Source of the DNA: Psammoneis japonica
Lineage: Eukaryota
Assembly (NCBI GenBank): GCA_008632985.1
Contig: QPGO01000060.1
Coordinates: forward strand, 248,001-312,000
DNA: 64,000 bases
Direction: 5' to 3'
Position 1 is the first letter of the stretch; every line of letters begins with the position of its first letter. Shown here piece after piece: positions 2,170 through 43,254 of the stretch. The notes beneath the pieces were generated by a model. The model had not been told where the DNA came from, ran no database searches, and was given only the letters and a program-made list of their open reading frames with translations. The position numbers were made by a program, and so were the translations under genes.

Positions 2170-2226
2170 ACGACGGCTATACGGTTTCATACCGGTAATC
2201 TCTCTACCATAGCTAGAGGGAGAACA

Positions 2227-7027: not shown

Positions 7028-7078
7028 GCGCGTGTGTCGGGTTGCCGTAATTTAAACCTTGTAGTATTGCATGTACTA

Positions 7079-10270: not shown

Positions 10271-10369
10271 CAGTCCAAACATGTCATCTGTGTGGATGGC
10301 CACTGGCAGCAGCAGAGGAGCCATTGCAGTGGCGGAGCGGCGTGGCCACCGCACCACACCAGTGACAAG

Positions 10370-16020: not shown

Positions 16021-16604
16021 CTTTGTCAAGTCATCTCAAGCTAGATCTTGCAACAAGGATGACTGAAGTCATTTGATGACTCGCGCCATTTTTGGGGCTG
16101 CAGTGAGGTGGACGGACACTCTTCTTTTTCCAATTTGTTGCCAAAACAGTGCATCACACAAACCCACTCATTGCTTGACATGTTTTTTCTGACATGACTT
16201 TTTTGGTGTGCAATCCACAACAAATTCTCTTTGTTTGAAGCTGTGTGCAGTCTTCAACATGCCACACCGGCAATCCCAATTTTGCAGCGCTTTTGAGCTC
16301 TTCTGAAAAACAGCTCCAAGCACCCATTGCAGAGAATTTGTTGATTTTTTGGGATGTCCCCACAACCTCTGATGTCCTTGATGACTGTTCTCCAAATCTG
16401 AACAATCCATTTGTGCTGAACAACACATGCCGTTGCAAAATCGGAGGGACGCACTCGCAAATTCAAATGGACCCCCCAACTGCCCGACTGCCCGACTGCC
16501 CAACTGCCCAACAGACACAAAAAGTCTGCAATCACTGGCCACTGGGTGGTCAATGAAAGTCTGCAATCACCAGCCACTGCCCTGAGTGGTCAATGAAAAG
16601 ACAA

Positions 16605-16865
16605 CTCTCCAGATGCGATTGCCTGGCATGGCATCTCGATCCAAAATGCCACCACAATTTTTCCAATGCTCCCCAGCTGTTTTGCTGTTGACATCAAAGC
16701 ATTGGACACAACAGGGCATGGTGGCTTGTGAACAGCACAAGGGAAATTGATTTGCAGTGGCATTTGAAGGATTCTGAATGCATGAGAAATGAGTTCGTCA
16801 CAGTCGGGGGCCACGAGTCAATTGTTGGCATGCTTTTGCATGCCATTTTGTGTGCTGTCTTGTAG
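16605..16865 (-). repeat. Inverted copy of the 9995-10270 repeat
   Basis: Matching translations ELISHAFRILQMPLQINFP...AKQLGSIGK (-) and QLISCEFRSFGMLLQINFP...AKQLGIIGK (+). Confidence 0.75.
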
Positions 16866-19779
16866 AATCAGTGCCAGGATTGCCGTGGCCAGAAACAGCA
16901 TGTGTGGCATCATGGCATCTGTGCAGACAAACAACCAGCTACCAGCTGCCGTGAGATCATCATGAAAGATCTGTGCCCCAGATTTTAGTTCAAAACAGGT
17001 GCAGATTGTCAAGGATTCCAGAGGAGCAGATGCAGATTCTCAAAAAGTGTGGATTTTCAATGACTCTGTTCAAACTGGATTTGGGTTTTCTCAGATTTGA
17101 AGAACCCCTTGCCAGGTGGGCCTGGTGCATTCTACGTGCATCCTGCGTGCATTTGCACTGGGGTGCAGATTCCAGATTCCCATTCAGAGCAGGTGCCGAT
17201 TTTTTCAAGCCCCTCAAAAACAACAGGTGCAGATTCTAATTTTGGCACAGATTTTCCATGACAATCATGGTGGTCCATGTGCTGCCAAATTGCAAAATTT
17301 GTGACATCACAAAATTTGCAACAAGTTCCAAATCCCTGCACAATCGCCACATGGCAAGTTGAGAAACCACACCCTTGTCACCCTCAAAGATTGTCTTTGC
17401 TGCAAGGGCAACATCCTCTGGTGCTGTTCAAGGTGCAGGTGCACTTTCTGCTTTGATTGAGAAAAGACATGATGCACAAGAAAGGACAAGAAATCATCAT
17501 TTTCAAAGGAAACTGCCTTCTCGTGACTGCAACTCATGCCGACGCATCACAAAATTTCAACACAACCTTTTTGGACAATTGCACTGCCTTTTCTCACAAA
17601 CAAACTGTCTCACGAGGCTCTTTGCAATGACAACAATCCAATTGGTGCAATTGTTTCACATCACTTGCAGACCTGTGGTTGTCAAAACAGCAGCAGCATT
17701 CTTTGCCCATTTGAAGAAAAAAAGAAGTGCTCTGAGACCCTGCATGTGCTTTCATCATGAAAAGTTTGAGCCATTTGTCTTTGTAAATTAATTTGCAACT
17801 TGAGAATTTTGTGTCTCAGCAGTGTGCAACAAGTTGAAAGTGTGCAACTCAAAACAGCAAAAAGAACAAAGATTGTTGGATGGCAGACAAACAATGAATG
17901 CTCAAAAAGACATTTCAGTTGAATCAATCACTCATGTGGTCCCTGCAATGTGCTCCATGTAGACCACTGCACCTGCATGCTGCTGGCAGCAGAGTGGAGA
18001 GTGCAGTGATTTTAGTGCATCAGGGCCCTCTCTCTGCCAGCATGCAGAGCAGAGAGCAAGCTGTTTCAAGAACACATGGAAGCTGGCACATCAGACCACA
18101 ATGCATGCTGCCACACAGCACGCCAGCTTTGGTGCATTCTTGGTGCTTTGCAGACAGTGAAGTTGCTGTGCAGGGCATTGCACACCAACCAGTTGATGCC
18201 ATCCTGCCTGGTTGTTGCTGTGCAACTCTCTTCATCAGCAGTTGTCACAGGAACAGATCATCATGGAGCTGCCTGCCCTCCCCTTGTCAGTGCCTTCAAT
18301 GACCAACAACACTGAAACACAGCAAAGCCAAGCTCCCAGTTGACCCCACACACTGCCTCTGCACTGGATGAACAATGCCATGCTGGCAACATCTCAGCAT
18401 TGCAGCCACCCCCCCATTTTGTTCCAAGGCAGAGCTGGTCATTTGAGTGGTGAAATGTTGCCAGCATTTCATGTTTGCTTGCTTTGCATTGCTCCACACA
18501 CTTGTCAAAAAATGACGGTGCTGTTTCAGTGCCAGTGCACAGCTGAGGACTCAAGATCCCCACACATGTCACTCAACAAGCTGGCCAATCAAAGTCAGCC
18601 CCCCCCCCCCCCAGTTTCTCTTGCAAAAAAAGGAGCCAGAGCACTGCCACATTTTTTTTTAGTCTTTGCACCAGCACAAAGAATGCAGGAGCTCAATTGT
18701 CAAGAACAGTCAGGTGCAGCAGAAGCACAACAGAAAAATGTGGCCCAAAGAGTCATTTTCTCATCAACAAACTTCCTCCTGAAGGCTCTTCTCTTGCATC
18801 TCTGCACCCCCCTCCAAGCAACAAGAGGGGTGACTCGCACTTCACAACAAACAGATCTGGGAAAAGAAGCAACAAAAAGTTTGGAAGAAGTCCATGAGAT
18901 TTGCTCAATTGAGCTGCACAGTGATGGAAAAAAGGATGGATGCAAGGCAAGCATGGCCGCCCCACCTCTGCATGTGTGCGTTTCTCAGCTGCTGGGGGGC
19001 CAAAGCACATCGGGGGCACCCTCCAAGAAAAAAGCTGCACAGTTGCACTTGTGGCTCTTACAAGCATGCAAAATGCTTGGCTCAGTGACTGCAGGCATTT
19101 GCTGGCATTTCTTTCAAAGTTGGCCTTCTTGACAGAAGCTGGGCTTCTTGAGCTGACAGAGCCACTGCTCTCAGGCCATGACGGGCCAGCAAGCGTGGTG
19201 TTTGAAGCATCAAAAAATTGTGTGCAGCTCCTCCTGCAGTGGTCTAACAGCCTGGATGAAGTGTGGGAAACACGAGCCATTTCAAAAATTTCAAATGTTA
19301 GACCTCAGCTGGAGCGGTCTTAACAGCCTGGATGAAGTGTGTGGAAACACGAGCCGGAAGATCCATCCTACAGGTCATCCGTGATTCGACTCATGACTGG
19401 TGGAATTCGCGATCCGCTCATCCAACTCGTCCACCAATCACCAATCCATCCAACCGCCGAATCTTTGGGGGAAGTCTCCCGCCAGCTGCTGGCTGAAGAA
19501 TCTTGTGTAGAATTTGTACTGAAAGAGTCTGTCAATCTGTGCGTTAAGGGGTTTTGTGAACGCTGGACAGACTCGTCGTCTTTCGCGTACGTAAAAACTC
19601 TACTGGCAAACCCCCAAACGCACTGACGAGCAGACTTTTTTTAGCCAGCAGCTGGCTACGGCTGGAGACTTCCCCCATCTTACAGTAGGAACTTACCGTA
19701 TCGCTTGTCGCACTCAATACTTCTCTCTTCTGTGCACCTGGCTGAGTCTTTGTGTAATTTATCACAAGAACAGATCATT

Positions 19780-25065: not shown

Positions 25066-25940
25066 TGCCACTTTTGCAGTCATCAATTTAGCACAACACT
25101 TTTGTCATCAATGCAACATCATCCACTTTGCAACCTTCGGTGCTGCCCTCGCTCCTCTGGGCCTGTGCCTTGAGTGAGTCGAGTCACGAGCGATTTCAGA
25201 TTCCAGCCATTGCAAGGGAAAATTGACATTTTTCCATTGACCAGACAATTGCTGACAACCCCACAAAGGCTGGCAGCTGTCCTTCACACTGAGGTCCAAC
25301 GAACCCAACATGGGCAGGCACTCACATCCGTTTCGGGGCTCTTCGAGGTGTTGCGAAATGATGCAGGCAATGTGCGGAAAAGCAAAATGGCAGAGTGCAA
25401 TCCATTGAAAATTTGACCTCTGTGTGTTGACCCATCCTTGAGGCAGGGGATTGCTGCCAACACTGCAAAACCAAGGTGCGCGACTTTCTCTGACCTCTGC
25501 AGAAGCAGCTCGAGTTTCGGAAGACGCATCATGGCTGAACAAAAAACAGCAAGCGGTGCACAATTTTTGGCAAAGGAAAAGCTGGGGCAGGCAAAACAAG
25601 AGTTGATGAAGCAAAAATCTGCTCACCGCCCGCCTCTGCATGGAAACCGTGCTCCCTGTTGTGGACGCTGGCGAGGCGGCGATTGTGTGGAAAAGAGAAA
25701 AGGAGAAGCGGCAAGAAAATTTCAGGAAACAAACTTGACATTGCGGTGCAAATCTCAAACATGAAGCATGGGTGATGACTCATGCCAGTTCATGGGCCAT
25801 CACAACAAACCAGCAGCTGCAGCATTCAGCAGAATCTTGCTTCTTCAGACTGCAGTGCAACGCGCAGAAAAATCGCACATTAAAGTGAAGAGAGACCGAT
25901 TTGAATTGAACGCTGAACGCAATGGTGCCCCCAACAGGAC
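25066..25940 (-). pseudogene. Mutated duplicate of the 3' end and downstream region of the 43666-49377 gene
   Basis: Collinear with ~43262-44120; HFNVRFFCALHCSLKK...CCSCWFVVMAHELA versus intact HFNVRFFYALHYSLKK...CYSYWFTVMAHELA. Confidence 0.9.
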
Positions 25941-27283: not shown

Positions 27284-27830
27284 TGGCGTGCGCGTGCGTG
27301 GCTGGGTGGCGGATGGTTGATGAAGCTTGAACGGAACAGTCTTCCGTGCTGTCAGACTGAATGTGCCTCCTGCCTCTGACACACAAACATCAACTAACGC
27401 ATTAGACCTTAGGAAAACGTTGGAGAAGGGTTGTCGCTGAGACTCCCCTGCTCTCCTCGGCTCTCTGACACAATTGATGAAATTGACAAAGACAACAAGC
27501 CAGACCTTGCACTGTGGTCACAGTCGTTGCAACAGCTTGCCCTTTGATTGCAACGAGGCCACTCTGACACCCTCTGGAAACAGATTGACAAAAAGACAGA
27601 AATGTTTGACATTCAAGCTCGTGTGGAAAATTGGGCTCAACCAAGAGAAAAAGGAAAATCGTGCGCACAATCACATTCACAGCATTGGCGATGCTGAGGA
27701 TCGTTTGTTTGACCTCGAGTCTTGACTCACTGCACTTGAGTTCATGCTTGTTTGGGCTTTGATTGTTGCTGCTGTGTGTCTCAAGTGGAGCTGACGGGCT
27801 CCAATCATCCCAGGTGGGACTTTTTGTGAC

Positions 27831-30800
27831 TGACAGGATTTGAACAGGATTTGGGTGTGCGCGAAATGTCGCGCGCTGTTTAGTTTGCCGTGCACAGTTT
27901 TGTGTGCTTTAGTTCCGCGCGTTTGCGCATGATGCAGTTTGCTTTCGAGCCACAAGGCTCACAAGAACAACAACAGTGGCCCGATTGTGCCGACTTGCAC
28001 GTCTTTCGGCTCCTGCAACGGTCTCTGAGCGGAGACTCATCTGCCATTCAGACAGCAGTGAGGAGTTGTTGTTTGAATTCTTGCCATTTGCCTTCAATTT
28101 CTGTCGGATTAACAGTCTTGCTCATTGTCAACCCATTGAGCAACCGCCATCATCGTTGTTGATTTGCCGACGATGCCGTTTCAATTCTGCGTGGACCTCC
28201 GCATGTGTTCCACATGCATCGGCAAGTCTGCACGCGTTCAACACCAGGCATCGGCAGGAATTTAACGTCACCGTCAAGTCTCCTTACCGCTGGACATCTG
28301 GATTGATCACACTGCCTTTGATCGCTGAAGACATGCATCAACGGTCATGTCCAAGTCTGTCCTTGATCCTCATCCCTTGATGTGCCCATTCAACGGTCAA
28401 CGGTCAAGAACCCCACACATTCAAGGATCTCCATCGCTGAAGACATGTGCACACACACATCTTCACGGCCAAGGACTTGAACCCACTCTTTGGACTGCGG
28501 CTTTGCTGCCACTCTACAAGCACGCCGAGTCTGTTGCACCTGATCTACCCCGGACTGCTGGTGCTCTGCAGTTCTGCCAGGTCCACGAGGACGACTGTGA
28601 GAGCAAGCAGCCATGATTGCAGCCTGCGTTGGGGCGAGGGTGTTTTCCCGCGTTTGTTCGTTCGTCCACAGCGCCTGACGCCTGCGTCAACTGGCCAGCC
28701 TGATCGGGAAATCCAACTGACACAAAACAAGAACGGTTCGGGGGTCTTGTCCACCTCCAGTCAGCTCACCTGCAGGGGTTTGCAACCCGCTGCTCCGCTC
28801 GCAAGCAACCCAAAGCGCCACCAGCTGCGGGTTCGGACGTGCCGGCACAACTCCACGGACCGGATGGGAAGTTTAGCACTTGACAACGAACGGGATGGCA
28901 CAGCCCGGCGACTTCTGATTTCAAGATGGTCCAAGATTTCAAGTCAAGTCTTTTTCAAGCCAAGTTCCAAGTCAAAACTCCGAGTCAAGATCACGCTCTA
29001 GATTGGTTCCTGTCTTTTGTTTCTACTGCACCGTCCTCCGTCATGGTTCTCACGCGACAGCAACAAACCGAAAGCTTCAAATGCATTCTAGGCACTGTGC
29101 TCAATCAAGACGATGACAGCCCTCTTTGTTCTGCCCTGTCCATCAACGGGATTGAATCGTGCGAGGAATTGTTCACGTTCTTGCCCACCCAAATTGATGC
29201 CCTCACTTACAGAGACGGCGCCAATGTAGTGCCTTTGCCACGGACCCACAGAAACCTCCTAGCAGCTTTGATCAGCTTCTACTTTGTCAAAGTTTGCAAC
29301 AGTGATGATGTGACCAATGAACCCCAGTTGCTCACACCCGAGGAATTTCGCAACTACCGCCTTGGTCCAGACTGCTTGACCTCTCTAGCCACTGGCGCAG
29401 CACCCTCCGCACCTGTGCCGAGTCCCTTGCCATCCAAACCAGATGAACCCAGTGCCATTTTGACACCAGCCTTGCACTGTGCCGCCACTCAGGTGTCCCC
29501 CAGAAGTGGTGTCAGTCGTGCCCCGCATGTCTTGACCAACCCGCCTGCAAGCAACCTCAGCCCAGTGCAGGATTGCAGCCCTTGCACAGGCCCGCACTTC
29601 AAGACCAGTTGGGACACTCCACCCATGGCTTCCAAAGCTGCAGTCTTTGCACCCCGCAAACCACGTGCTGCCAACCTCCACGTGTCGACTTCTGTCACTG
29701 TCACCCTTCACAGTCTTCGTTTGGGAAGTGATGGAGGTGACAACTTGCTTCTCGTGTCTCCTGATGGGGAGCCTCCTTTTCCCGTCATTGAATCTGTTCA
29801 CAACAGTTCAACCGGTTCATCAGATGGGGAGTTCAGGACATCCAAGCAGCTTCATTGTCTTCAGATCCTCCAAGCATCGCACAATGAGACCAGGCCTCCT
29901 GATTGGATGCCCCAAGTCTCGTACCTCGAGACTGGGCCTCCTGATTGGATGCCTCAAGTCTCGCACCTCGAGACCAGGCCTCCTGATTGGATGCCTCAAG
30001 TCTCGTACCTCGAGACTGGGCCTCCTGATTGGATGCCCCAAGTCTCGTACCTCGAGACCAGGCCTCCTGATTGGATGCCTCAAGTCTCGTACCTCGAGAC
30101 TGGGCCTCCTGATTGGATGTCCCAAGTCTCGCACCTCGAGACTGGGCCTCCTGATTGGATGCCCCAAGTGTCGTACATCGAGACTGGGCCCCCTGATCGG
30201 ATGCCCCAAGTCTCGTGCCTTGAGACCAGGCCTCCCAACTGGATGCTCCACATCTCATGCCTCAAGACTCGGCCTCCGGATTGGATCCCTCAAGTCTTGC
30301 GCCACGAGACTCGGCCTCCTGATTGGATCCCCCAAGTCTCGCACCTCAAGACTTGGCCTCCTGATTGGATCCCCGAAGACTTGTGTCACAACACTGGCAA
30401 GTCCTTTTGGATCCCAGAAGTCTTGCAGCACGGGACTGGTTGCCCCAATCAGACATCTGCAGCCTTGCACCACAAGATGTCTTGCTCCAATCCGATCCCC
30501 GAAGGCTTGCACCTTGAGACTCGTTTCTCCAATTGGATCAGTCTCTCAGGAGATGCAGTCGGATTGGTGGAACACAAGACCACCGCTTGTGCCTTTGAAC
30601 TGATGCTTGCTCTGTTCCCCGAGTCGTGCAAACGCCATGCCGCCTGCAATGTTGCCCCACCGTTCAACATTGTCAACAAGACCAAGCTTTGCTCCTTCCA
30701 TTGCAAGCGCGGATGTGGAATCCCACAAGATCCCAAGTGTGCCTTGAGCTTTGAAAAGCACAACGGCATCTGCAACTGGGGAGACGCAGCTCATCTCAAG

Positions 30801-31217
30801 ATGACCCACTTGGAGAATGCAACGTTGCTCTTGGATCTTGATCCTTTCTCGTCTCCTCATGTTTTGGTGCTTTGACTCCAAAGTTCTTTAGTCAATCCGA
30901 AGTCGAATCTGTTTCTGTGGCTCCTCAAGCAAACTGGGGAGTGACAGGATTTGAACAGGATTTAGGTGCGCGCGAAATGTCGCGCGCTGTTTAGTTCACC
31001 GTGCACAGTTTTGTGTGCTTTAGTTCCACGCGTTCGCGCACGATGTAGTTTGCTTTCGAGCCACAAGGCTCACAAGAACAACAACAGCAGCCCGATTGTA
31101 CCGACTTGCACGTCTTTCGGCTCCTGTGATGGTCTCTGAGCGGAGACTCATCTGCTGTTTAGACAGCAACAAGGAGTTGTTGTTTGAATTCTTGCCATTT
31201 GCCTTCAATTTCTGTCA
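27831..31217 (+). mobile_element. Non-autonomous (internally deleted) LTR retrotransposon, probably diatom Copia (CoDi-like); 276-bp LTRs, 5-bp TSD
   Basis: LTRs 27831-28106 and 30942-31217 (TGACAG...CTGTCA); TSD gtgac at 27826-27830 and 31218-31222; purine run ggggag before the 3' LTR; gag-like ORF 28926-30875; no RT, RNase H or integrase core. Confidence 0.9.
29886..30545 (+). repeat. 42-bp in-frame tandem array, ~16 units (ETRPPDWMPQVSYL), decaying toward the 3' end
   Basis: Unit gagaccaggcctcctgattggatgccccaagtctcgtacctc, seen directly. Confidence 0.95.
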
Positions 31218-33799
31218 GTGACATTGGGCGCGCAGAATTCTACTTGCGAGCTCCGCAGCAAAATTACAAAGCAATGAAAACATGAATGATCGCTGACAGA
31301 AATAGAGGCAATTTTACGAACGTATCTCCTCCTCCAAATTTGAAGCACGTCATTTGTGGTTTGCCCGGGTGTGTTCTTTAGACACCAAAGAACACACCCA
31401 GCGCATTTTCATTGTCACAAATGTGGAAAACAGAAAGCCTTTGGCTTCGCAAAAGAGGCAGTGTGGAACAATTTTTTACAATGGAACACGCAGAAATGTG
31501 CGTGCAAAACTTGCGACGGATGACAAAAAATGATTGTGTCACAGTCCAGCAGTGCGAGGTCCCACCCAGAGCTGGAGCGCGTCAGCTGCATTGTTTGTGT
31601 GCTCAAATTTGTGGTCAACTGGCTGATCTCCAAATGCCTCTAGAATCATGTGCAAAGCTGCAATGGAGACCGCTTGCATTGAGTGCAAGACCAAACTCAA
31701 ACACTCTGAGCTCTCGACAAGAGGTGAAGCTCACACAGGAGTTTGAAGGTGGTTCAAAGCTCTTGCGCATGTGTCCTGTTTTCACTGGTGAGTTCGGAAT
31801 TGAACCCTTGTTGCATGTGGAGGATCAGTTTTGCAAGTGTGCACACGTCAATTGCAGCACACTGATGAATCAGATTTGTTTGGCTGTTTCTTTGAAGATT
31901 GTTTGCATGGCAATGCCAAAGCAAAGTGGTTGAACATCACCTCTGCTGTTCCTCAGGCACAGTGCACTTTTGCACACTCCAATCAAACCAGGAGTTTGCA
32001 TCATTTGTGATGTGTGACAAGCCTTTCTGGGGGGCACTGACCACGGCAAGACTGCACAAGGTCATCAGCATGCACGCATGCATGTGTGCTTGTGGCTCAG
32101 AGCAGGCCTGTGCAGGTTTTCCACTGGGATTGACACCATGCATGCATGACAAAACAACATGTGAAACTTTTGCCATCACTCATTTGTGAGCCACAAAGAA
32201 TTGCCAAGCCAATGAGACATGTGTGATCCGCAAGCATCTCATTGACACAGCTGTGCCCAAATGGCTTGGCAACTGTTCCAGGTGGGCCCAAACTTGTTCA
32301 ACAGAACGTGTCATCATGGTTGTGTTGCAAGCAAAAAATTGGTGGTTGTCAATTTGCAATGACGTGTGGAACACAAAGCAAAATTAAAGGAGGTCTTTGA
32401 GGCAACCTTCCCACAGCCAGAGTGCAGAGTTTTGCTTGACTGGCTGAGCCATTGCAGTTGCTTGGATGCACATTTGTGCCAAAAGAAACTTGGTCTGAAC
32501 TGCCAATGTCAGATCCAGAAGCACCTGACTGGTGTCTTGCCTCAAGAGATGAGGGAGTCCTGTCCACAACGTTTGTGTGTTCGTGCCAAGAAAGTGTGGT
32601 CCAGATTGAGGAATGAGTCGCAGCAGGCAGAAGTTTGTTGATTGACATTTTTTAGAAAGAGGCAAGACTTTTGTCAATCAAACATTGTGCATTTGCCATC
32701 TGGCTAAAATCCAAAGGTGAGCCATCCAACTGTCGGGCTCACGTCTCATCCATTCCTGGGCACAACAGGAACAGAAATGAGTCATGACGTCTTGGCGGAG
32801 GGTTGTTTGAATTGGCCAAGCAATCAAGAAAACAGTGGTCCACGTGTGTCACTGGTTTTCTGTTGTTCATTTTCCCAATTTTGTTCTCAGCCACAGTGCA
32901 TGATCACCATGTCGGACGGTGTTGTTTTTCCACTGCAGTTTCCCAATCCTGCTGAGGATTGCACACTTGCACAGCTGACGGAGGTGAGGCAAGTGCTGCA
33001 GAATGACAAGTGGCACATCCGTCTCATGCAGAAGAATGCAATTTGCCATTTGAGCAACTTTGGAACAACACAAGATAAAATTGACTCTCTTTTGCCAACC
33101 AAGGGGAACTGCATCAATTGCCATCATGTTGGTCCAAACCAACAAATGTGCCGACACTGCATCGGCCTGGCCAATCGGCTGGAGCAACACATTTGGGGAG
33201 ACATTCCCAACACACAAGCTGTGATGACTTGCTGCTGCTGCTTCATCAATGCCCACCCATTCGAGAAAGCAGAAGGCTGGCACACTGAGCTGGACATCAA
33301 AGACTTGTCTTTTTCTGCACCATCAAAGCTGTGGGCCGTTCAACATCATTGATGTAAAAAAGGCTGACAGGAAGCTGCAGCAGTGTTTCAAATTGAAGCA
33401 CCAGAGAAGCAATGTGTGCCCAACTTGCAAACACACCCACTTCATCATGTGCCAGTTGATGTGTGGGAACTTTAAAATGGTGTGGCAGCATCTTGAGAAT
33501 CTCAACCAGCTGGATGTTCTTGAAAACTTGCCACCGATCATTCCCAAGGAATCCACAATTTCATTGCCAAGAGGGGTGGTGGCGGGCATTCCGATGTCAA
33601 TTCACACTGATTGGACAAAACATTGGCACACTGGTTTTGTCATTCCATGTGATGAGTTCGACACACGGAAATTTGTTGTGGTTGCATCAAAACTGCACAG
33701 CTCCATGTCCAACCAACAGCTCTTTAAATGTTGCTTGGGAACTGCCACCCATTGCACCTAAAACACACACCTGTCTGCTGCGTTTGTCTTGGTGGCCTC

Positions 33800-36500
33800 T
33801 CGCACCATCATCTCGCTTGTCCATTGAACAAATGTCTGGGCACACTCTGCTCTGGGACAAACTGCCATGACGGTGTGTTGTTTCCTTGCATTGGCTGACA
33901 ACATCCAAGGTGGCACTGGCTCTGTGCAGTGTTTTGTCTGGAAAGACAGGTGCTTGCCCTTTGCACAGGAGACAGGAGTGTTTCTCATGGAGGGCTTGCT
34001 GTTGCTTTGGAATTCTTGTCAGCAATGCGTGAACAGCCCAGCATCTCCGCAGGTGGACTGGCACACTGTTGCAATTTTGCTGGGTGTGTCTTGTTCCAGT
34101 CGTTGACCATGTCGAAGTCAACACCTGCCCAACCACACCAGGTGCCCTCCTTTGAGCGGCATTGTGGATGGGCACACACATGTTCCCCATCAGAGAGCTT
34201 CAGTTTGTTCCACATTTCAAATTGATTCTGGTTTGGCTCCAATTCTTGGATTGCTTCAAGGAAGGCATGACACGGTTTGCCTGATTCCTTGTTTGCTTCA
34301 TGTGTCTTCCCAAAACAATCCATCAACAGGACATTGTCAAATTGATCACACATTCAAACACAAAATGAGACATCTTTTGCATGGTGGTGGTTTCTGGCAT
34401 CACAGAGGAGTCATCCGTGCCATCATTCATGTCACCTGCAGTTGCCCTGTCCAGGGTGTCAGCACAACAATCAAAGAGCATGGACTCGCACACCCTTTCA
34501 CAAGTTTGGCATGCAAAGGTGTCCTCTCCTCACTGCTGGGCTGTCTTTGATGTTTTCTTGGCTTTGGTTTTCAACAGCCTCTCACCCGTTGACATGTGCA
34601 CTTGAATTGGCTCACCCACAAACAATTGATTGAACAGGGTGTGAAGCTGTGTGTGATTTTTCCCCTGTGTCATTGTCAATGGCAGAGTTGCCATGACAAA
34701 TTGTGGTGTCCATGTGTGCCACAAAGCTCTTTGCCCCAAATGCAAGGTCTTTGTCATCCATCTGCATTTCCTTGGAGAGCAGATGGGAACAGTGACAATG
34801 CACGTGATGACAGAGAACACATTCTGGGAAGGAAGCAAAGGTGAAAAAGTCAGAAAGAATGGATCCTGTGTGCCCATTGCCCTTGATCTGGGGCTTTTTG
34901 CAACAACGCTTCTCCAAACAATTGTGCATTGGGTGAGAAAACTGGTGCGGGTTGTCGCGGTTTTCCTCCATGACACTCACAGAAGAGGGACAAAGCAAAT
35001 CAACCTTCTTCTTCACAATGTTTTTTTCTCAACCTGCTGTTGACACACTTCTCAACATCAGTCTCAAACTCATGTGAGGTCTGGCAAGCAGTGCTGTGGC
35101 CAGCTTGTGCTGCCATTTCAGGAAATCCGTCATGCGTGTGTTGGCCTTAATTTCCTTGACAGACGCACCATGGAATCCAAAGGTGATTTGGTTTAGACAG
35201 GAAACCATCTTCACATTTGTCGGAGTGCAAGAGAGTCCATTTTCTTGGGTGGGGAGGAAGGTGTTGGATGTGTTGGTGGACAAACACATGCACAGTTGGT
35301 GAACCCTGCCAGCGCCACCTCCGTTGGTGGCTTTGCAACCACATGTGCAGTCCTGTGATTTCTGGTCTCCAAGAAAGATTGCCCCCTGCATGAAAATGAT
35401 GCACATCAGCTGACATTGCCCACCCAAATTAACCATCATCTTGGGTGGTTTCTTCTGCAGATCCTTCAAGTCTTCCAACAAAAAAGAAAGCATGTTGTGG
35501 CAGACCTGTGTGTTGCTGGACAAATCAGCATGTGGTGATGCATCGTCCCAAAGGGGGTTGCCATTTTCATCAGTGCCACCAGAAGAACCTCCTTTGTCTG
35601 TGCTGGGTGTGAAACCTGGGTGATGCCAAGCATGAGAGTGTTTGTGAGCTTTCCTCTTCACAATGAGGATGCAAAACAGCCAGGGTTTGAGTGGATGTCA
35701 TTGACAGGCGCCAGTTCCTGTTTGGTCTGCATGCAAGCTGATTGGAAGAAGGAGGTCCTTCTCTGGATCAAAATCATCGGGGAGATTGTCATGTGTGTTG
35801 GAGTGCCATTTGTTGCAAATGATTTCACCAAGGTCGGAGTCATGGGGACAAACTTGCAGAAATGTTCTTGGAACAATTGGTTGACATTGAGATTGTGGTG
35901 ATCTTCAAAAAGAGAGTGGGCCAGCAAGTCTCTGAGCATGTTCAGCATTCAGAAACGAGTGACTTGGTGCCCAGAAATGACTCGTGTGTCTGGCTTGGGC
36001 ATGCAGACCTTGGTGCGCAGGTTTTTCACCAAATTTTGGCGACAAAGAGCCTTGGATGCGTCAAACTTCTTTTTCTTACAGAGCCGTTGGAGCAGGGTGA
36101 GCAGCAAATCACAAAAGTCTTGGGTTGCACCGGAGTTGTCACACAGTGTGATCAGCTCAAGAGAAGCTTCCTCAGCCAACACAAAGCTGCACCCGGACAG
36201 GGTGAAGGACTCTTGTTTGCCAGCAACAGATGGTTCTGCCAGAGAAGCATCCTCTTCATCGAATCCACCATCATGGGTGGGTTGGTGCCAGGGAACATCT
36301 CAAACAGACACAGATCCTCCTCGTCATTGTCGTCATTGGAAAGAGAGATCCATCGGCATCTGATGGGTCATCATCATTGTCATTGGACACTCCATTGTCA
36401 AACTCAAGATCAGATCCTGGTGATGACCCACTGGATGACAGGGAGGAAACAGAGAGAGAGAGGCAGTGAGGAAACTGGCATTGGAGTGGTCAACTGCATT
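33800..36500 (-). pseudogene. Degenerate Plavaka-like (CACTA-related) transposase, nested in Gypsy element 2
   Basis: FLGDQKSQDCTCG...GRVHQLCMC and EHVCAHPQCRSKEGTWCGWAGVDF, which back-convert to the RAHPxYRS..WYDWA pattern of this family; recognised from memory, not searched. Confidence 0.55.
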
Positions 36501-36899
36501 TGCGAATGATCCAGCGGAGTCAGAGATGGAGGAGAAGGAGGAGGAGGACAACACCGTGGACTTGTTGTCACATCATTGGCAAAGGAGCAATGCAGCAGCT
36601 TGGGACAACATGCCCAAATCACTGACCAGAGCATCAACCTGGCTGATTTGGCAGGGCTTGCGGTGGTGACGGTGGCGACAAGCCATGGGCAAAGTGTCAA
36701 ATTTCAGGGGGGGGTGTTGCAAAGATGGACACTGACAGGGAGAAAATCATTGGAATCAAACCAACAGATTGGTTTTCAAATCAGATCATTGAAAAAGCAT
36801 GGGCTTTGATTGAGAAAGCACATGCCCAGCAGTGGCACAGACACAAATGTCAGACATGTGGGAAACAGAATTGGAAAAACCGCACATTCAGTCATCCAG

Positions 36900-38541
36900 T
36901 CATGGGACATTGCATTGATTTTGAAACTTCCGTGAGCAAATCGCATGATTGAACATTGTGCAACACATGAAATGGCGCCAATCTAATTTTTGGAGCATGA
37001 GATTCACAAATGCAGGGAAGTCCAGTTTGCAACAACAAACCACCTTGCGGGGGAATGCACACATGACCAACCAGTGCCACACTCAGGGACGAGCAACAAC
37101 ACACACAACATCTGGAGACATCATTTCAACCATGGTGCAGAGGCAGATCAATCCAGCCAAATGGATGGACGACAAGGAGAAGGTGGCCAAAGACACAGTC
37201 AAGGTGAGAGAACACATCAAAGAAAAGGTGTTTCTCAGTGTCACACTTGTGTTTAATGTGGAACAGTTGGAGGAAACTGGAATGCTTTGCAGAGACTGCA
37301 CACAGAATTGCGGACTGACGCCAATGGATGGAATGCTTTTGGAGCTGCTGGAGGCAAACCAGAAGACACACCTGCATTTCCTGTGGATGAAAATGAAAGA
37401 AAAAAGAGTGCACCAGGATTGGCTGATGACAAAGTGGTCAAATGCATGTCAAGCACAGCAAGACAAGTTTCACAATGAGTGTTGTCATGGAGGATTGTCA
37501 CATTGTCATGGATGAGGGAACAGAATGCCAACACCGGCATGTTGTTGTTGCTCATGATGCAGCCCTTTGTGCATGCTGCAACAAGCACAGTTGCATCTTG
37601 CCATTGCCAGAATGACTCCAGGAGCAATTGTTGAATCCCACATTGCAAACAGTGTTCTGCAACCACTTGTTGAAACCCATCATGGAAGAATTTTGTTGGA
37701 AGAAGAGCCTGTCTGAAAACAAAAGGTTGGGCACGTTGTGTGCCAAGGCATTCACCCACATGCTCCTCAAGAACAATTGTGTGGCGTGGATCACAGAGCA
37801 CAAGAGCAACAATGAGGAGAACCGATTTATGATGGACTGCAATGTGGATGTCAACAACCAAGGAAACCCAACCAGAAGGGGAGACTTGTGTGAAACCATG
37901 ATGCCAGACATCGCCATTGCTGAGCAGAAAGATGCAAAGGAGATGGATCAAGCACATTCGCCATTTTGAAGAAAGACCCTGAAGAAGCCACAGAGCAAGG
38001 AATGGTCAACAAGTTGGTGAACAAGTTCAAGGAGGTGCGGGAGAAGTCCATCAATGGCCAGAATGAATGCATCAAGAAGGTGAGAGCAGAGAAAACAACA
38101 CAGGATCAGTTGTCCATTTTGACAGAGGTTGCAACAGAGCTGGAGGGCCACAAGAACCCACCAGACAGGGAATTTGGCGCCAAAAAGAGAAAATGCCTGA
38201 GATGCTTGAAGCACTTCATGGTGGGAGAGACCAAGAGAGGAGAGGAAGAAGGCACTTTGAGGAGACAACGCAAGATGCCCAGGAAGAGCAAAGGATGGTT
38301 GCCAAGGGCAAACAAGTTCTTTGCAAGAATGGTGAGGGAAATCAAGCAAGACATCCAGGACAAACAACTGGGCAAGTGGGAAGAGATGCACAGGATGATT
38401 GTGGCTGAGCACAACAGGAAAGGGGGGCAGGAGAATGATGAGTCGGAAGACGAAGACGACTGCATGGTGGACTGCATGGAGACACACAAACTGGAATTGA
38501 CACCTGTTGATCAGATGCAACATTCGCGCACTTTCAAATGA
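36900..38541 (+). pseudogene. Degenerate accessory ORF of the same DNA transposon, divergent from the transposase
   Basis: FCNHLLKPIM...KAFTHMLLKNNCVAW and KSKGWLPRANKFFARMVREIKQD motifs; acidic tail; short repeats (cattgggttgca) at ~38720-38780 near the probable element end. Confidence 0.45.
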
Positions 38542-40991
38542 CATTGTGGAGTGGGGGTGTAAATTGACAAAGTGAATTTTAGCATTCTGACCAGGAAGTA
38601 GATTGAATGACATTCTTGCAAAATGGTCATTTGGGAAACAAATCAATGTGTCCATTGTCAGTCAGTTGTCAATTGTCGTGAAATGGAATTTTTGTTTGCA
38701 TCAAATTGTTGGATGGCAGCAAACCAATTGGGTGGCACAATCAACTCATTGGGTTGCACAACAAACTCATTGGGTTGCATGTCACTGACTTGATCCACCA
38801 GACATTTGTTGAAGGTGCAGGACATTTGTTTGTTTTCAATGATCAAGTCATGAACAAATTGACGTGCTTTCTCTCACACATGCGGGGACAGAATGAGGTT
38901 GGGTTGGCTGTGGATGCAAGGATTCATTAATTTGGGCCCCTCATGTTGGTGCAGCAACTTGTTGTTGCAACATGTGGCTTTGCAGGTTGCATTTGCTTGC
39001 CCCGCTGATGGAACTCACAGACAAAGGCCACTTCAAGTGATCCAGTGCTTGTGACAAGGCCTTCAAGGAGATGAAAGCTGTTGTTGCAAGCAAAGTGCTC
39101 CTCCAATGCCCAAACCACAATCTTCCATTCCATGTTCACACTGATGCTTCAGACTGCCAAATGGGTGCTGCCACAATTCAAAATGGCGGGAAGCCAGTTG
39201 CTTGCTGGTCCTCCAAGCTCTCAGTGGCGCAGCACAACTGCACCACAATGGAGAAGGAACTCCTCACTGTCATCATGTGCTTTGAGGAGTTTTGGACCAT
39301 GTTGCTTGGCATGGAATTAGTTGTTCATGCTGATCATAAAAATCTCACATTTTGCACCTTGCATTCTCAACGCGCACTCAGGTGGCACCTCTTTCTTGAA
39401 GACTTTGCCCCACGCTTTGTCTGCATCAAGGGCAAGGACAACATCCCAGTGGATTTTTTTTTGTGTCTTCCTTGCATGGATCCATCATCTGAGGGGAAGA
39501 GTCAATGACTGAGCAGCAAGCACAAAGGAGCCATCATTGACACTAAAAAGTTGGGTGCCTCTGAGGACATGACTCAAGATGAGCTTGCAGAGGATTTGGG
39601 TGCTTGTTGTTTCAAGCACTGTTGTGCTCCCATTGAACCTGAATCTAACACATTCTTGTCCCTTCTTGATGAACCAGAGCTTTTCAAATGCTTTTTGAAT
39701 TGTCCAAGCTTGGATGAGATGCCAAGTCCTGTGGAGACAGTGCAGTTACAGTGGTTCCAGTTTCAGGACATGGAGTTGAGCCAGCAACAGCAACGGAACC
39801 CTGGCAACTTTGTCATGAAGATTGTGAACAATCGTCCCCTGATCTGTCATTGTGCACAGCCTGATGATCCTTCTGCAGCACAAAAGATTTGCACTTCAAC
39901 CAAATTGCTGCCTGATGTTCACTTGTGTGTTGGTGCCATTGCGTGTTGTGACACTGTGGCACTGTGCATCTGTGTGAAAGCATCCGGACTCACTTGCATC
40001 ATCCAGCATTGCATTGTTCATGCAATGCTTTTGCAATGTGTGATTTTTGTCAGCATTTTAAACAACTTGGACTGGGCCATGGTGAATTGCCAGAAAGAGA
40101 AGCACCAGTGGCTCCATGGACTGAAGTTGCTGTTGAATTGATTGGACCTTGGAAAGCGCCAATTGATGATCTTGAAATTGAACTCCAAGCACTCATGTGC
40201 ACTGGTGCTGTCACCAGACCAACTGAACTTGTGCACATTGATGACAAAGCTTCTGAACCTGTGACTGACAAATTCTGCAGCACTTGGTTGTCTCATCACC
40301 CCAGGCTGAATTGCTGCATCCATGACAATGGCGGCGAGTGTTCATCGGCTGGGAATTTCAAATGTCATTGAACCAAGCGGGCATCGTGGATGCACCAACT
40401 GTGTCGCGCAATCCTGCAGTGAGCACAATGCAAACAAATGCATCAAATGGTGGCTGACCTTCTGTGCACTGTGCTTGTTGCCAACCCTCCTCAAAATGTT
40501 GTGCAGGTGACTCAGATCATGGATGATGCCTTGGCTGCTGCCTCGAATGCCCTTTGTTGCTCCTTCTCAATGTCAATGAGAATTTTGCCAGGAGTGCCAG
40601 TGTTTCAACATGACATGATTTTAGACCTTCCAATTTTGGCCAATCTTGCTGCAATTCAAGCCAACCATCAAGTTCTGATCAACAAGAATCTTTGAACACA
40701 GAGTGCCAAGCGACGATCCTGCGACTGTCAAGTTGGGCAAGATGCGTTGGTCAAGTCGGTCAACCCTGTCAAGTTGGATGCTTGGCCATTGGACCTTTTT
40801 GGATTGTGCAAGTCCACACCAACAGGACTGTTTCAACAATGCAGGCACCACATGCAGCGCATCGGGGGTGAGTGGTTTTCTTTCCCCACGTCGGGTTTCC
40901 CTCAGTCTCTGCTGGAGTTTGAGCTTGAGTTTGGATTTTGAATTGTTTCCATGGTGCACAGGACTTTGCACCCTGGAGAGGGAGAGTGAAC

Positions 40992-41360
40992 TTTCCTGAA
41001 TTGGGTTTGCATCTGAACATTTTCTGAAGTCATTGACACGCACTGAAGCACTCACGTCATGAGGATGAGGTGGCAGGTCTTCTCACAAAACTTCGTCACT
41101 GCTTCAACATGGTTTTGCTCATTTCTTTCCAGATCAGTTGCAACACTTGAGAGCTCAAAGGCATCATCTAGAGCTGTTGACATGATGTCGATGCATGGTC
41201 TCTGTGCCGCAACCACAACAACGACAACAGCAAGGTTGATTCGTGCTTTTTGGATTTTGTGTCTGTCGCGGGGCGTGCGCGCATGCACCAATGACATGAC
41301 GTCACGTCTGCGTCATCAAATTAAAATCAAGCAAGTTTTCGAAAAGCAAAACGTCATGGC
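40992..41360 (-). pseudogene. Mutated duplicate of the calpain-7 5' end and promoter
   Basis: MSTALDDAFELSSVATDLERNEQNHVEAVTKFCE versus intact MSTALDDAFELLSVATDLEKNEQDHVEAATKFYE; collinear with ~24555-24980. Confidence 0.92.
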
Positions 41361-41631
41361 TGGAATTGTCCTGAGGCTGTGTGGTGTGGGAATCTACGCA
41401 ACGTGGCAAAAAATGCAATCAGCTCTGAATTCTTTGCAGCAAGTGTGATTGGCCGTCACGTCTTTGTCCCCGCACATTTTCTACAGCGGCTGCACGATTT
41501 CGAAAATTCATGCCGCAACGCTCGAAGCATCGCCTTCAGTGACGCTCTTGACGAACCTGAAAGCAAAATCAAGAGCGCAACGGTGTGCCTTGAACATTTT
41601 GACAACCTTGTCGAGTGCAACGGGTCCAAAT

Positions 41632-43254
41632 TCATGGACCCCTCAGTGTCTTCAATGCATCCACAATCAACAGCATGGTGAGCCTGAATGTGCTGTCGTG
41701 CTCTCTTTGCAAACTTGCGCATGCGCTCCGTTGAGACACCTCATCCGACAAGCAATGCCCAGCCGATTTCTTGAAATTTTCTTTTCCTCTTTTCTGTGAC
41801 AGGAAGAGGTTTCGACACTTGCCTTTTGAACAAGCCCACAGATGCTCTGTGCCTTCCCCTGCCAATTCAGCATGACATTTTGGAGTCAAGATCACGCGGA
41901 CTCCCATGCGGTGCACATGATGCTGAAGCAGTGTAGTTTCCTTGGAGAAATCTTCACAAGAGGCAAGCATTTCTGCTGGCTCTGTGTTTTCCAAGCAATT
42001 CCCATGCTGATCTTCAATCCCTCCTTTTCCATGCTTCAGGTTAGCATCAATCAACCCCCTTTCTGTCAACACTTGAAGCAACCCTTTCGGCTTGCCGCGC
42101 CAACCCGGGAGAATTTTCCGCACTGTCTTTTTGATTGGAATGTTTGCTTTCTCGCAGTCATCCTGCAAATCTTTCTTTGTGCTACCCTTTAGCACGGTGT
42201 GGCTTGGATCCTTTGCCCTCAAGTCATTTTCTAGCTCCTCTTTGAGTTTGTCAACGGTCTTAAACTCGTCTGTCGGTGTGTCTTCCTTTCGTCGGAGTCG
42301 CTCTTCCGGATCCATCAGGCAAGGCCCTTCATCCTCGTCTTGGAATATCATTGATTGTGTGTCACCAACTTGCAGCCTTTGTGCATTCTCATACTCTCCT
42401 ACACATTCTTCTGTCAATTTAGTGTCTCTCATCTTGTATTTCCCGCCCCACCCTAGGTTCATCTTGTGGGCCGACAAGCCATCCTCCCGCTGCTTTGAAT
42501 GGCCCGACGAGTGGTCAAAAAAGAAAATATGATCAAATTCAGGACACTTTTCATTAAGTACATCAACAACATCTTCAAGCTGCGTCACCATGTGGTTGTA
42601 CGTCCAGTGTCCCTCACTATTCTGCCCGTACTCAAATTCGCAGACGAATGGCGACGTCTTTATATCTTTTTTGGAATTGGACCCCCGGGCTTCGGTTGCT
42701 GCTGCTTCATCACAGTACACAGTTCCACTCCTTTTGTCATTCACTTTCTTGAGCAAAGCATCATCAAGACTTCGTATCAGGCCAAACTCCCGACATATAA
42801 AAAGAGAGAGCATTATTCCAAGGCCCTCATCTTTCGGAACCAGCGCTGTCTCACCATGTGGCCCAACCCAAGCCTTGTTATTCAATAGAAACTGTTTAAA
42901 AATAGCCTCATCTTGCCACGACAACATAGCCGGCTTTGCATTGGCAGGAAACCGGTAGCTTAGATATCCACCATATTCTCGCACTTTCGGATCGGCGGAT
43001 TGAGCAACCATGTCACGAAAGCCGCTATAGTCGTCCACATGGAACTCGACATATACGTTACCATCTCGAGTAAAGTGGGAGTCTGGACCACGATTCGGAA
43101 CCAAGCCTGTATTCATGAGCTCCGTTGCTTCTTCCAGTGGAATTTGTATCCACCTGTAGCACCTCGTCTCCAACTCAAGGTATTCTTTGGTGAATTGTTT
43201 TCGATATGCCTTCGTGGCAGGCTTCTCGTGACCGTCGACATAAAAGCTTTTCAC
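41632..43254 (-). mobile_element. 5'-truncated DDE transposase, IS630/Tc1-mariner-related (YVDGHE type)
   Basis: Motifs FYVDGHE, WQDEAIF, PKDEGLGIMLS, FDHSSGH, MNLGWGGK, PKGLLQVLTERG, TPKCHAELAGEG.E..W; the ORF start abuts host intergenic sequence. Confidence 0.75.

Follow-up and report, generated by a model that had tools for sequence, protein, structure and literature searches.

Loss of TpA and CpG in transposon-bearing domains of a diatom genome, recorded by the two LTRs of one retrotransposon

Described systems and the present locus

The closest precedent for the pattern described here comes from the chlorarachniophyte Bigelowiella natans, in which a 2026 preprint describes hypermutation of integrated viruses at TpA only. 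In its account, two viral inserts acquired 231 de novo mutations, of which 230 were A>G or T>C, all of them at TpA; mutation at TpA proceeded at about 1000-fold over background and was active in a subset of lineages, an ADAT2-like DNA deaminase was proposed, and low-TpA coding sequences were enriched for reverse transcriptase and DDE domains (bioRxiv 10.64898/2026.01.13.699255). The preprint contains none of the words CpG, diatoms, flanks, or context, and we found no report in the literature of TpA-directed hypermutation in diatoms. Fungal repeat-induced point mutation (RIP) converts C:G to T:A, mostly CpA to TpA, making TA and lowering GC (PMC2621366). Diatom transposons are methylated, in Phaeodactylum in a DNMT5a-dependent manner (PMC9998398).

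We analyzed a 64,000-nucleotide stretch of the genome of the diatom Psammoneis japonica (the window). Like B. natans, the window displays A:T to G:C transitions at TpA on both strands, limited to foreign or repeated regions with host genes spared, and clustered stretches that are poor in TpA and rich in CpA plus TpG (here TA 0.07 and TG/CA 1.74 over 31 kb). The two cases differ in host and target, B. natans being a rhizarian with viral inserts, whereas here the host is a diatom, and so a stramenopile, in which LTR retrotransposons, relics, and duplicated fragments are hit. They differ also in extent, with near-complete erasure of TA here (observed/expected ratio, o/e, 0.05–0.07) and an o/e of 0.45 given for the B. 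natans viral region; moreover, CpG is lost from the same domains here and a 3′ pyrimidine is preferred, features that the B. natans account does not mention. Finally, our rates are inferred from sequence comparison, while those of B. natans were measured in mutation-accumulation lines.

The other systems share fewer features with the window. As in RIP, the changes are transition-only, dinucleotide-specific, and repeat-directed, and they destroy transposon genes, but TA is destroyed rather than made, GC holds steady at 0.47–0.49, and a single member of a duplicate pair is mutated, where RIP mutates both. Decay of methylated CpG resembles the changes from CG to TG/CA, the limitation of CpG depletion to transposon domains, and the conversion of Arg codons to CAN/TGN, and it accounts for the CG part alone. 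The substrates of ADAR and APOBEC enzymes in animals are RNA or reverse-transcription intermediates, and a single strand is marked. The window has in common with their products clustered deamination-type transitions in retroelements and a U/T before the edited adenine; in contrast, the changes here are post-insertion, lie on both strands, and extend to non-retroelement DNA.

The element and its two LTRs

The element that carries the record is a non-autonomous LTR retrotransposon of a very abundant family in the diatom genome. Its 5′ LTR (27831..28106, + strand, 276 nt, TGACAG...CTGTCG, the final base G changed from A) and 3′ LTR (30942..31217, + strand, 276 nt, TGACAG...CTGTCA) are bordered by a target-site duplication, GTGAC, whose identical 5 bases lie immediately outside both LTRs (27826..27830 on the 5′ side, 31218..31222 on the 3′ side). 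A repeat finder returned one direct pair (27828-28105 and 30939-31216, 92% identity); once TGACAG...CTGTCA is taken to mark the ends of the 276-nt repeats, these are 92.4% identical and 3111 bp apart. TG...CA termini are seen in the 3′ LTR, and the 5′ LTR terminates in CG. The interior (28107..30941, + strand) is without reverse transcriptase or integrase and contains a single long, putatively coding ORF of 649 aa with a 14-residue repeat (28926..30875, + strand). We class the element as non-autonomous because a search with this sole ORF gave no Pfam match at E≤1, nor did any of 8000 scored candidates of near length prove to be a homologue. A purine run adjoining the 3′ LTR, GGGGAG (30936..30941, + strand), as read from the sequence, is a polypurine tract candidate of a mere six bases. 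A blastn search found no further copies within the 64-kb window; many dispersed copies are indicated by 7649 contigs of one run (X1) that align to the element. Summed depth on the LTRs was 76,000–241,000 compared to 84–105 in the flank, depth not being equivalent to copy count.

Tandem Repeats Finder (TRF) delimited a 42-bp tandem array of 11.7 copies within the element (29886..30378, + strand). One column of the array reads TA in five, CA in three, TG in three, and CG in one of the first 12 units, and CA in the degenerate 13th; for the array's alternation of ACCAGG and ACTGGG, no simple ancestor could be derived from the printed units.

An ungapped comparison of the two LTRs reproduced the count given in a preliminary description of this DNA, 21 differing bases with neither indels nor transversions, and the computed table matched its dinucleotide tally exactly. 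Four sites are TA versus TG/CA, with the TA invariably in the 3′ LTR; six are CG versus TG/CA, split three and three between the LTRs and including the LTR's final base; five are double sites with TG versus CA; and the lone difference outside YpR is a G/A at LTR position 228. Nearly all differences were said to lie in YpR dinucleotides, and this holds for 20 of the 21, though 144 of the 276 positions are YpR in either LTR (hypergeometric P = 1.3e-5). Observing 21 transitions out of 21 has a P of 0.009 even assuming 80% transitions, and two gene paralogues from the window, by comparison, differ by 89 transitions and 90 transversions. By site class, the LTRs differ at 1 of 132 non-YpR positions and by 20 differences in 144 YpR positions, in agreement with the proposal of a process faster than background. 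Dating by LTR divergence would accordingly overestimate age, as had been suggested, by about tenfold (7.6% overall versus 0.76% at non-YpR positions), and the same exaggeration is to be expected in genomes of this kind. The LTRs differ while the target duplication stays intact, which supports the further proposal that the process acts after insertion.

The TG/CA double sites had been explained as palindromic YpR dinucleotides hit on opposite strands in the two LTRs. At the level of the process this explanation is borne out, as two Ty3/gypsy relics aligned with each other show such pairs: CA faces TG at 5 of 11 positions of conserved Tyr codons (TAY) and at 3 of 18 positions of conserved Arg codons. 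For the five LTR doubles, a rate model gave a log-likelihood of −9.83 with TA ancestors and −14.12 with all-CG ancestors, a margin that the flank preference described below weakens: all five lie in RTAR or YTAY flanks, where one outcome is favored, so the simple model overrates the chance of opposite outcomes. By this model TA would be the likelier ancestor of the double sites.

Domains, direction, and target motif

Depleted DNA makes up about half of the window (31 kb of 64 kb) and lies in five blocks. The depleted set and normal DNA have o/e ratios of 0.07 and 0.53 for TA, 0.33 and 0.98 for CG, and 1.74 and 1.18 for TG/CA, while the other 12 dinucleotides are nearly equal in both, save moderate shifts at TC and GC; base composition is equal across domains (GC 0.47–0.49). 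The three erased domains are domain 1 (7601..19200, 11.6 kb; TA 3.2 per kb, o/e 0.05; CG o/e 0.25), domain 2 (31401..42000, 10.6 kb; TA o/e 0.05, CG o/e 0.31), and domain 3 (49601..53600, 4 kb; TA o/e 0.07, CG o/e 0.09), the ORFs of which had no Pfam match. CG o/e is thus 0.09–0.31 in the strongly depleted domains versus 0.95–1.02 in large normal blocks, and at 200-bp resolution the domains have sharp borders. Domain 1 contains a Ty3/gypsy pol relic with reverse transcriptase, RNase H, and integrase (12526..15677, + strand), identified by Pfam RT_RNaseH at 76 bits and by tblastn with long pol homologues; its RVT_1 match, at 21–23 bits, falls under the cut-off, and it matches the Ty3 chains 7q5b/4ol8. 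A truncated second Ty3/gypsy pol relic with RNase H and integrase (38945..40844, + strand) was found with RT_RNaseH at 78–81 bits and by tblastn. An old LTR-like direct repeat (10368..10580, + strand) is paired with 15812-16017 at 78% identity, with 39 transitions, 4 transversions, and 9 TG/CA doubles; their position suggests that the two repeats are the LTRs of the domain 1 relic.

Genes retain both dinucleotides. In five long ORFs (3738 codons), TTA (23), CTA (30), and GTA (31) persist, T|A across codon boundaries has an o/e of 0.63, and NCG codons equal or exceed NCA codons in frequency. A 376-bp spacer within a polymerase gene has TA 0.64 and CG 1.10, and TA in non-coding stretches adjoining genes ranges from 0.38 to 0.72. 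We conclude that the process is limited to particular domains, made up of transposon copies and relics and of stray duplicated fragments, and that genes are spared.

The direction of change is loss of TA, not gain. We took contigs of three very small runs to represent the dominant, least-mutated subfamily, an inferred reference for the family; family states are available for at least 40 of 258 differences, and every family count given here rests on those 40. Among these 40, the other copies have TA where this copy has TG (10) or CA (9) at 19, CG where this copy has TG/CA at 11, and TG where this copy has TA at 1. The ten changes from TA to TG and nine from TA to CA relative to the dominant family sequence agree with the strand symmetry claimed in the preliminary description. 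The 5′ LTR is derived relative to the family at 27924 and 27930 (CG to TG) and at 28049 (TA to CA). The alternative that TA is being gained is contradicted where the family is visible, that is, at two of the four TA versus TG/CA sites: at 28049, T makes up 99.4% of the family, which marks TA as the ancestral state, and at LTR position 105, TA is present in one other contig.

Protein-coding relics and duplicated fragments point the same way. With a conserved codon defined by at least 75% agreement among at least five of eight pol homologues, and the two Ty3/gypsy relics scored, conserved Tyr was kept at 1 of 30 positions, which are now TGY (15), CAY (8), TGR (3), or TTY (3), while Lys (21/22), Gly (29/30), and Trp (12/13) controls were kept; conserved Arg was kept at 9 of 35, with 12 now CAN and 12 TGN. 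A hypermutated duplicate (25066..25938, + strand) of 43262-44119 kept 2 of the parent's 34 TA, the others now reading TG (10), CA (21), or CG (1), such that 31 of 34 TA were lost to TG/CA, along with 21 of 37 CG; both remaining TAs are also TA in the parent, and the loss is one-sided. No strand-coordinated clusters of TG or CA were detected in this duplicate (12 runs versus 13.6 expected, SD 2.2). A second hypermutated duplicate (40992..41239, + strand), of 24555-24799, has TG at four, CA at two, and TA at one of the seven TA of the normal-DNA copy. Loss is one-sided in both pairs, and the mutated member is the non-genic one.

The preferred target motif is 5′-TAY. TA survivors in depleted versus normal DNA numbered 1 versus 357 for RTAY, 19 versus 285 for RTAR, 14 versus 295 for YTAY, and 55 versus 213 for YTAR (Fisher 6e-21). 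RTAR sites in the duplicate became CA at 11 and TG at 1 (P = 0.006), and Tyr codons after a pyrimidine became TG at 15 and CA at 4; the bias predicted for YTAY sites in the duplicate was absent (TG 4, CA 3). Compared with the dominant family sequence, 28107-28560 lost 18 of 23 TA and 6 of 27 CG. From such sequence comparison, TA loss is about 3–6 times the per-site loss of CpG and roughly 100-fold over background, and per-LTR TA loss, as a relative estimate, is 0.5–0.73, versus 1 of 132 non-YpR positions differing.

Proposed reactions, alternatives, and reach

The spectrum, direction, strand symmetry, domain restriction, flank preference, and relative speed of the changes are observed; what produced them is probably an in-place, domain-restricted process of two reactions, TpA to TpG/CpA and CpG to TpG/CpA, recorded by the two LTRs, with adenine deamination as our preferred mechanism. 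Reaction 1 would convert A:T to G:C at an A after T, preferably with a pyrimidine next (5′-TAY to 5′-TGY, on either strand), and may consist of deamination of adenine to inosine in silenced-chromatin DNA by a TadA/ADAT2-type polynucleotide deaminase. Reaction 2, CpG to TpG/CpA, would be the usual decay of methylated CpG, presumably by spontaneous or enzyme-assisted deamination of 5-methylcytosine. TG and CA would be substrates of neither reaction, and so both palindromic YpR dinucleotides would go extinct while base composition stays constant. Sequence alone would read the same whether the A or the T of the pair was the target.

A different chemistry, in which the thymine of 5′-RTA is modified (for example by a TET/JBP-type dioxygenase) and mispairing with G or error-prone repair then yields T>C, would leave the same record, because 5′-TAY is 5′-RTA on the opposite strand, and thymine modification in dinoflagellates is enriched at TpA. 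We nevertheless consider it unlikely, as we found no report of such a base in diatoms in the literature and the only precedent paper argues for adenine deamination (bioRxiv 10.64898/2026.01.13.699255). Biased mismatch repair or biased gene conversion would instead resolve T:G always to C:G in this context, the T:G arising from replication errors or from heteroduplexes of diverged repeat copies. The bias would be analogous to very-short-patch repair at CTAG in E. coli, thousands of family copies are able to pair, and the outcome would likewise be TA to CA/TG. However, low-copy DNA is erased as fully, the two-copy duplicate loses TA one-sidedly, old diverged relics are just 68% identical, a general bias leaves the sparing of genes and spacers unexplained, and a rate of ~100-fold over background is high for repair; together these points make a repair origin improbable.

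The remaining alternatives are less probable still. A neutral mutation bias that disfavors TA and CG throughout the genome, both surviving in genes through purifying selection alone, would fit the o/e of only 0.53 for TA in normal DNA and the position of the mutated copy outside a gene in both duplicate pairs, but genes abound in synonymous TA and CG, the intragenic spacer (TA 0.64, CG 1.10) and gene-adjoining non-coding DNA (TA 0.38–0.72) are not erased, and the borders are sharp at 200 bp, so that we regard it as very unlikely. ADAR is known to prefer G as the 3′ neighbor, whereas a 3′ pyrimidine is preferred here. This speaks against ADAR-like A-to-I hyperediting of element RNA before reverse transcription, inherited at insertion, as do the differences between LTRs of one insertion, the similar numbers of sense-strand T>C (9) and A>G (10), and the effect on a non-retroelement fragment; the 5′ neighbor does fit, uridine before the edited A being an ADAR preference according to the preprint (bioRxiv 10.64898/2026.01.13.699255), yet RNA editing is a highly improbable source. 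Least credible of all is that a RIP-like process or plain C>T decay makes TA from CA/TG, with CpG decay covering the rest. Fungal RIP does produce TpA from CpA (PMC2621366), and the family state is visible at just two of the four LTR TA sites, but TA is near extinct in the oldest repeats (o/e 0.05–0.07), Tyr codons disappear instead of arising, 99.4% of the family reads TA at 28049, and in each duplicate pair a single member is mutated.

If reaction 1 is as proposed, diatoms, a major and genetically tractable group, would be a second lineage with TpA-directed hypermutation, for which the prior evidence is one 2026 preprint on one alga, and hypermutation here would proceed to completion on transposons. 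We further raise, tentatively and as somewhat less than an even prospect, the idea that diatoms carry a natural TAY-to-TGY DNA adenine-editing defense against silenced or foreign DNA, acting on both strands until TA is exhausted, an ancient system shared with the chlorarachniophyte and widespread in SAR. In that case its enzyme would amount to a naturally occurring adenine base editor of double-stranded DNA with a defined motif. The TAY motif, clear borders, and relative rate would make candidate deaminases and thymine-modifying enzymes testable by knockout. For annotation, homology searches are weakened because transposon proteins are stripped of every tyrosine and enriched in His and Cys, and long spurious ORFs arise in all frames and pollute gene predictions because TA-free DNA is without TAA or TAG stops.

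Outside this genome, none of 80 metagenome loci with related pol genes had a TA o/e below 0.3 (minimum 0.41), in a set biased by search patterns that required Cys or His at one Tyr position; the process is therefore not general among relatives of these elements. Five of the 80 loci had a CG o/e of at most 0.11 with normal TA. Such CG-poor loci, together with stretches of the window in which TA is erased and CG is near normal (41001-42000, TA 0.07, CG 0.78), indicate that the TA and CG processes are separable. Among 150 representative pol homologues, eight contained less than 1% Tyr and showed His or Cys in the majority of conserved Tyr columns.

The LTR pair and its family

A repeat finder returned a single long direct pair in the region (27828–28105 and 30939–31216, 92%). 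The 276-nt 5′ LTR (27831–28106, ends read from the sequence) starts TGACAG and ends CTGTCG, and the 276-nt 3′ LTR (30942–31217) starts TGACAG and ends CTGTCA. The same five bases, GTGAC, abut the outer edge of each LTR as a target duplication; a recombinant of two elements is disfavoured by this single insertion with its target duplication intact. The 2.8-kb interior contains one ORF only, of 649 aa with a 42-bp tandem array, for which we found no Pfam family; none of 8000 scored candidates is homologous to it. We class the element as non-autonomous because it is without a reverse transcriptase. The family is very abundant, with 7649 placements of contigs from one deep public run (X1) and a summed depth of 76,000–241,000 on the LTRs versus 84–105 in the unique 5′ flank (depth is not equal to copy number).

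Between the LTRs we counted 21 differing bases, no indels and no transversions: 4 sites of TA versus TG/CA, 6 of CG versus TG/CA, 5 double sites with TG in one LTR and CA in the other, and 1 other G/A, which reproduces the transitions-only tally of the preliminary description. YpR positions (TA, CG, TG, and CA) make up 144 of the 276 LTR positions but contain 20 of the 21 differences (P = 1.3e-5); by comparison, a gene-paralogue pair in the window differs by 89 transitions and 90 transversions. Because only 1 of 132 non-YpR positions differs, against 21 of 276 overall, the usual LTR clock exaggerates age about tenfold, as expected from the earlier claim that the process is much faster than background and makes LTR dates too old.

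The same sample also has three runs of very small size (0.3–0.5 million letters of contigs), which assemble the most abundant sequences only, and we infer that their contigs represent the dominant, least-mutated subfamily. Comparison with this copy gave 258 difference rows, of which we list, classified by script, the 40 on which the three runs agree. In 19 of these 40 the family has TA and this copy TG (10) or CA (9); in 11 the family has CG and this copy TG/CA; in 6 the family has TG/CA and this copy, or the flanking DNA, CG; and in 1 the family has TG and this copy TA. The other 3 include one transversion. Among the rows listed, the family has C at 27924 (99%) and 27930 (92%), so the TG of the 5′ LTR at both is derived from CG, and T at 28049 (99.4%), so the CA of the 5′ LTR there is derived from TA, bearing out at this site the TA loss that had been proposed. 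At LTR position 105, the loose end of one contig shows TA in another copy. Compared with the dominant family sequence, the losses in 28107–28560 amount to 18 of 23 TAs and 6 of 27 CGs, which puts the per-site rate of TA loss at about 6 times that of CG loss.

Several smaller features were observed in and around the element. In the first 12 units of the 42-bp array (29886–30378), one column reads TA 5, CA 3, TG 3, and CG 1, with CA in the 13th, degenerate unit, a pattern that fits TA loss within the array. A second column alternates between CA and TG (ACCAGG/ACTGGG) and reads TC and TT further along the array; no simple common ancestor could be derived for it. A near-perfect inverted repeat (27201–27283; 30-nt arms, 97%; 23-nt loop) sits close to the element on its upstream side, within a short island whose composition is normal. 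Immediately 3′, a high-copy repeat (31300–31593; summed depth 37,000–106,000 versus 157 past 31594) retains several TAs and may be a young repeat from a different family. At 27664 in the unique flank, the assembly has C (in CG) and the sole X1 contig at that place T, a CpG transition difference.

Direction of change in pol relics and duplicated segments

Pfam matches were present in 4 of 111 ORFs of the depleted blocks described below, all four being pieces of Ty3/gypsy pol, and tblastn with long pol homologues delimited two relics, at 12526–15677 and 38945–40844. Their codons were compared with 8 of the 10 long homologues (the two left out are repetitive proteins of several domains), using columns covered by five or more homologues with agreement among at least 75% of them. 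Conserved Tyr was kept at 1 of 30 positions (now TGY 15, CAY 8, TGR 3, and TTY 3) and conserved Arg at 9 of 35 (now CAN 12 and TGN 12), while control residues were retained (Lys 21/22, Gly 29/30, and Trp 12/13); at five positions conserved Leu is now CCA. Where the relics share a conserved residue, they form CA/TG pairs at 5 of 11 Tyr and 3 of 18 Arg positions, demonstrating that TG-versus-CA doubles arise in this genome from TA and CG ancestors, the palindromic origin first suggested from the LTRs.

A parent segment at 43262–44119 (TA o/e 0.70) has been duplicated at 25066–25938 (TA o/e 0.11). The parent's 34 TA sites read TA 2, TG 10, CA 21, and CG 1 in the copy, both remaining TAs being TA in the parent too, and its 37 CG sites read CG 16, TG 10, and CA 11; losses of 91% of TA and 57% of CG give a rate ratio of about 3. 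In an adjacent duplicated piece the arrangement is reversed, with 24555–24799 (normal DNA) retaining TAs that were lost from 40992–41239 (depleted block). The process therefore works in place, on one copy only, and on non-retroelement DNA as well. Together with the near-equal TG (10) and CA (9) outcomes in the family comparison, this upholds the proposed strand-symmetric action after insertion. The stretches 24555–25938 and 40992–44119 thus share a reciprocal segmental duplication of two adjacent pieces; of each piece, the copy that lies beside or within a gene is normal, and its counterpart is TA/CG-erased.

Depleted blocks, spared genes, and flank preference

Dinucleotide profiles divide the window into sharply bounded blocks. 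The normal blocks contain the genes (TA 33–41 per kb, CG o/e 0.95–1.02), whereas three blocks are strongly depleted: 7601–19200 (TA o/e 0.05, CG o/e 0.25), 31401–42000 (0.05 and 0.31), and 49601–53600 (0.07 and 0.09). A weaker block surrounds the element (27401–30800; 0.13 and 0.65), and 25201–26600 is partially depleted (0.34 and 0.84). Strong shifts between depleted and normal DNA are limited to TA, CG, and TG/CA; the remaining twelve dinucleotides are about the same, save moderate changes in TC (0.99 depleted versus 1.16 normal) and GC (1.18 versus 1.04), and base composition is equal because TA loss offsets CG loss. The depleted blocks are the end state of the process. Their long open frames exist because TA-free DNA is without TAA and TAG stops, and gene predictors would probably call false genes in them; such frames occur on either strand and in many reading frames, and 7500–19000 alone holds 40 stop-to-stop frames of 100 aa or more. 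Normal gene-bearing DNA (1–7600, 19201–25200, 42001–49600, and 53601–64000) still has a TA o/e of just 0.49–0.63, which may reflect either ordinary avoidance at the codon and RNA level or a weak leak of this process.

Within genes, five long ORFs (3738 codons) use synonymous TA commonly (TTA 23, CTA 30, and GTA 31), have a T|A o/e of 0.63 across codon boundaries, and carry TCG, CCG, ACG, and GCG at least as frequently as the matching NCA codons; in the 376-bp spacer that lies within the polymerase gene, TA is 0.64 and CG 1.10. This gene, for DNA polymerase alpha (2152–7027), has diatoms as its best named relatives (Seminavis robusta 66%, Attheya 65%; Cyclotella and Thalassiosira rank next), with other best matches up to 72%.

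Surviving TAs differ by flank between depleted and normal DNA (RTAY 1 versus 357, RTAR 19 versus 285, YTAY 14 versus 295, and YTAR 55 versus 213; Fisher test, 6e-21), which fits a changing A with a pyrimidine on its 3′ side (5′-TAY). This rule predicts RCAR from RTAR and YTGY from YTAY. RTAR sites of the duplicate became CA 11 times and TG once (P = 0.006), while YTAY sites (TG 4, CA 3) were without clear predicted bias. Relic Tyr codons read TG 15 and CA 4 after a pyrimidine and CA 4 and TG 3 after a purine, and depleted DNA shows a larger excess of RCAR and YTGY over RTGR and YCAY than normal DNA does (odds ratio 1.23, P = 1e-4).

For the LTR doubles, a uniform model from the CG counts (15 shared, 6 single differences) predicts about 0.3 such sites; a higher number is compatible with the TA counts (2 shared, 4 single). 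Poisson fits to the five doubles gave log-likelihoods of –9.83 if TA is the ancestor of all (N = 15, p = 0.73) and –14.12 if CG is. The true margin of TA over CG is smaller than fitted, since all five doubles have RTAR or YTAY flanks, which make opposite outcomes in the two LTRs less likely.

Mechanism, alternatives, and precedent

We conclude that TA is lost at 5′-TAY in place, in restricted domains, and symmetrically between strands, and that CG is lost more slowly. The two losses are separable processes: in 41001–42000 TA is erased (0.07) with CG near normal (0.78), and conversely 5 of 80 related metagenome loci, chosen by patterns demanding Cys or His at one Tyr position, are CG-poor with normal TA (L053, L057, L061, L074, and L076; CG o/e 0.02–0.11, TA 0.68–0.76). 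TA loss would proceed via adenine deamination in DNA and CG loss via methyl-cytosine deamination. The tRNA target of TadA has a U-A-C context, which the T-before, pyrimidine-after context here resembles; ADAR prefers G 3′ of the edited A, which does not match.

Five alternatives to adenine deamination were weighed, in this order: a modified thymine at RTA, mismatch repair with a bias, a genome-wide bias combined with selection, editing of RNA before insertion, and gain of TA by a RIP-like process. The last three are contradicted by the relic codons, duplicates, blocks, family rows, and ORF and spacer data; in particular, a genome-wide bias with selection would have erased the TA and CG that are present at synonymous and spacer positions.

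Among the full texts searched, no paper describes mutation directed at TpA in diatoms, and one is a close precedent: a preprint of 2026 on the alga Bigelowiella natans (bioRxiv 10.64898/2026.01.13.699255). Of the 231 de novo mutations that it counts in two integrated viral regions, 230 were A>G or T>C, every one of these at TpA, and the rate, about 6e-7 for each site and generation, was 1000 times that elsewhere in the genome. It further states that hypermutation was limited to some lines and that 124 clusters of windows were TpA-poor and CpA+TpG-rich; its authors propose an ADAT2-like DNA adenine deaminase, and its abstract, Results and Discussion describe no flank preference. For the CG process, PMC9998398 reports CpG methylation on diatom transposons and, in some diatoms, DNMT4, which is related to the fungal RIP enzyme.

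None of the 80 related metagenome loci had a TA o/e below 0.3, and in the five CG-poor loci, which belong to other organisms, CpG has decayed while TpA is unaffected. Among 150 representative pol homologues of the RNase H relic, 8 contain less than 1% Tyr (P0125, P0134, P0139, P0153, P0162, P0202, P0217, and P0221, from NCBI, ENA, and JGI contigs), for example 699 aa with none, and these have mostly His or Cys at the four conserved Tyr columns, so the same erasure may be present in other public assemblies.
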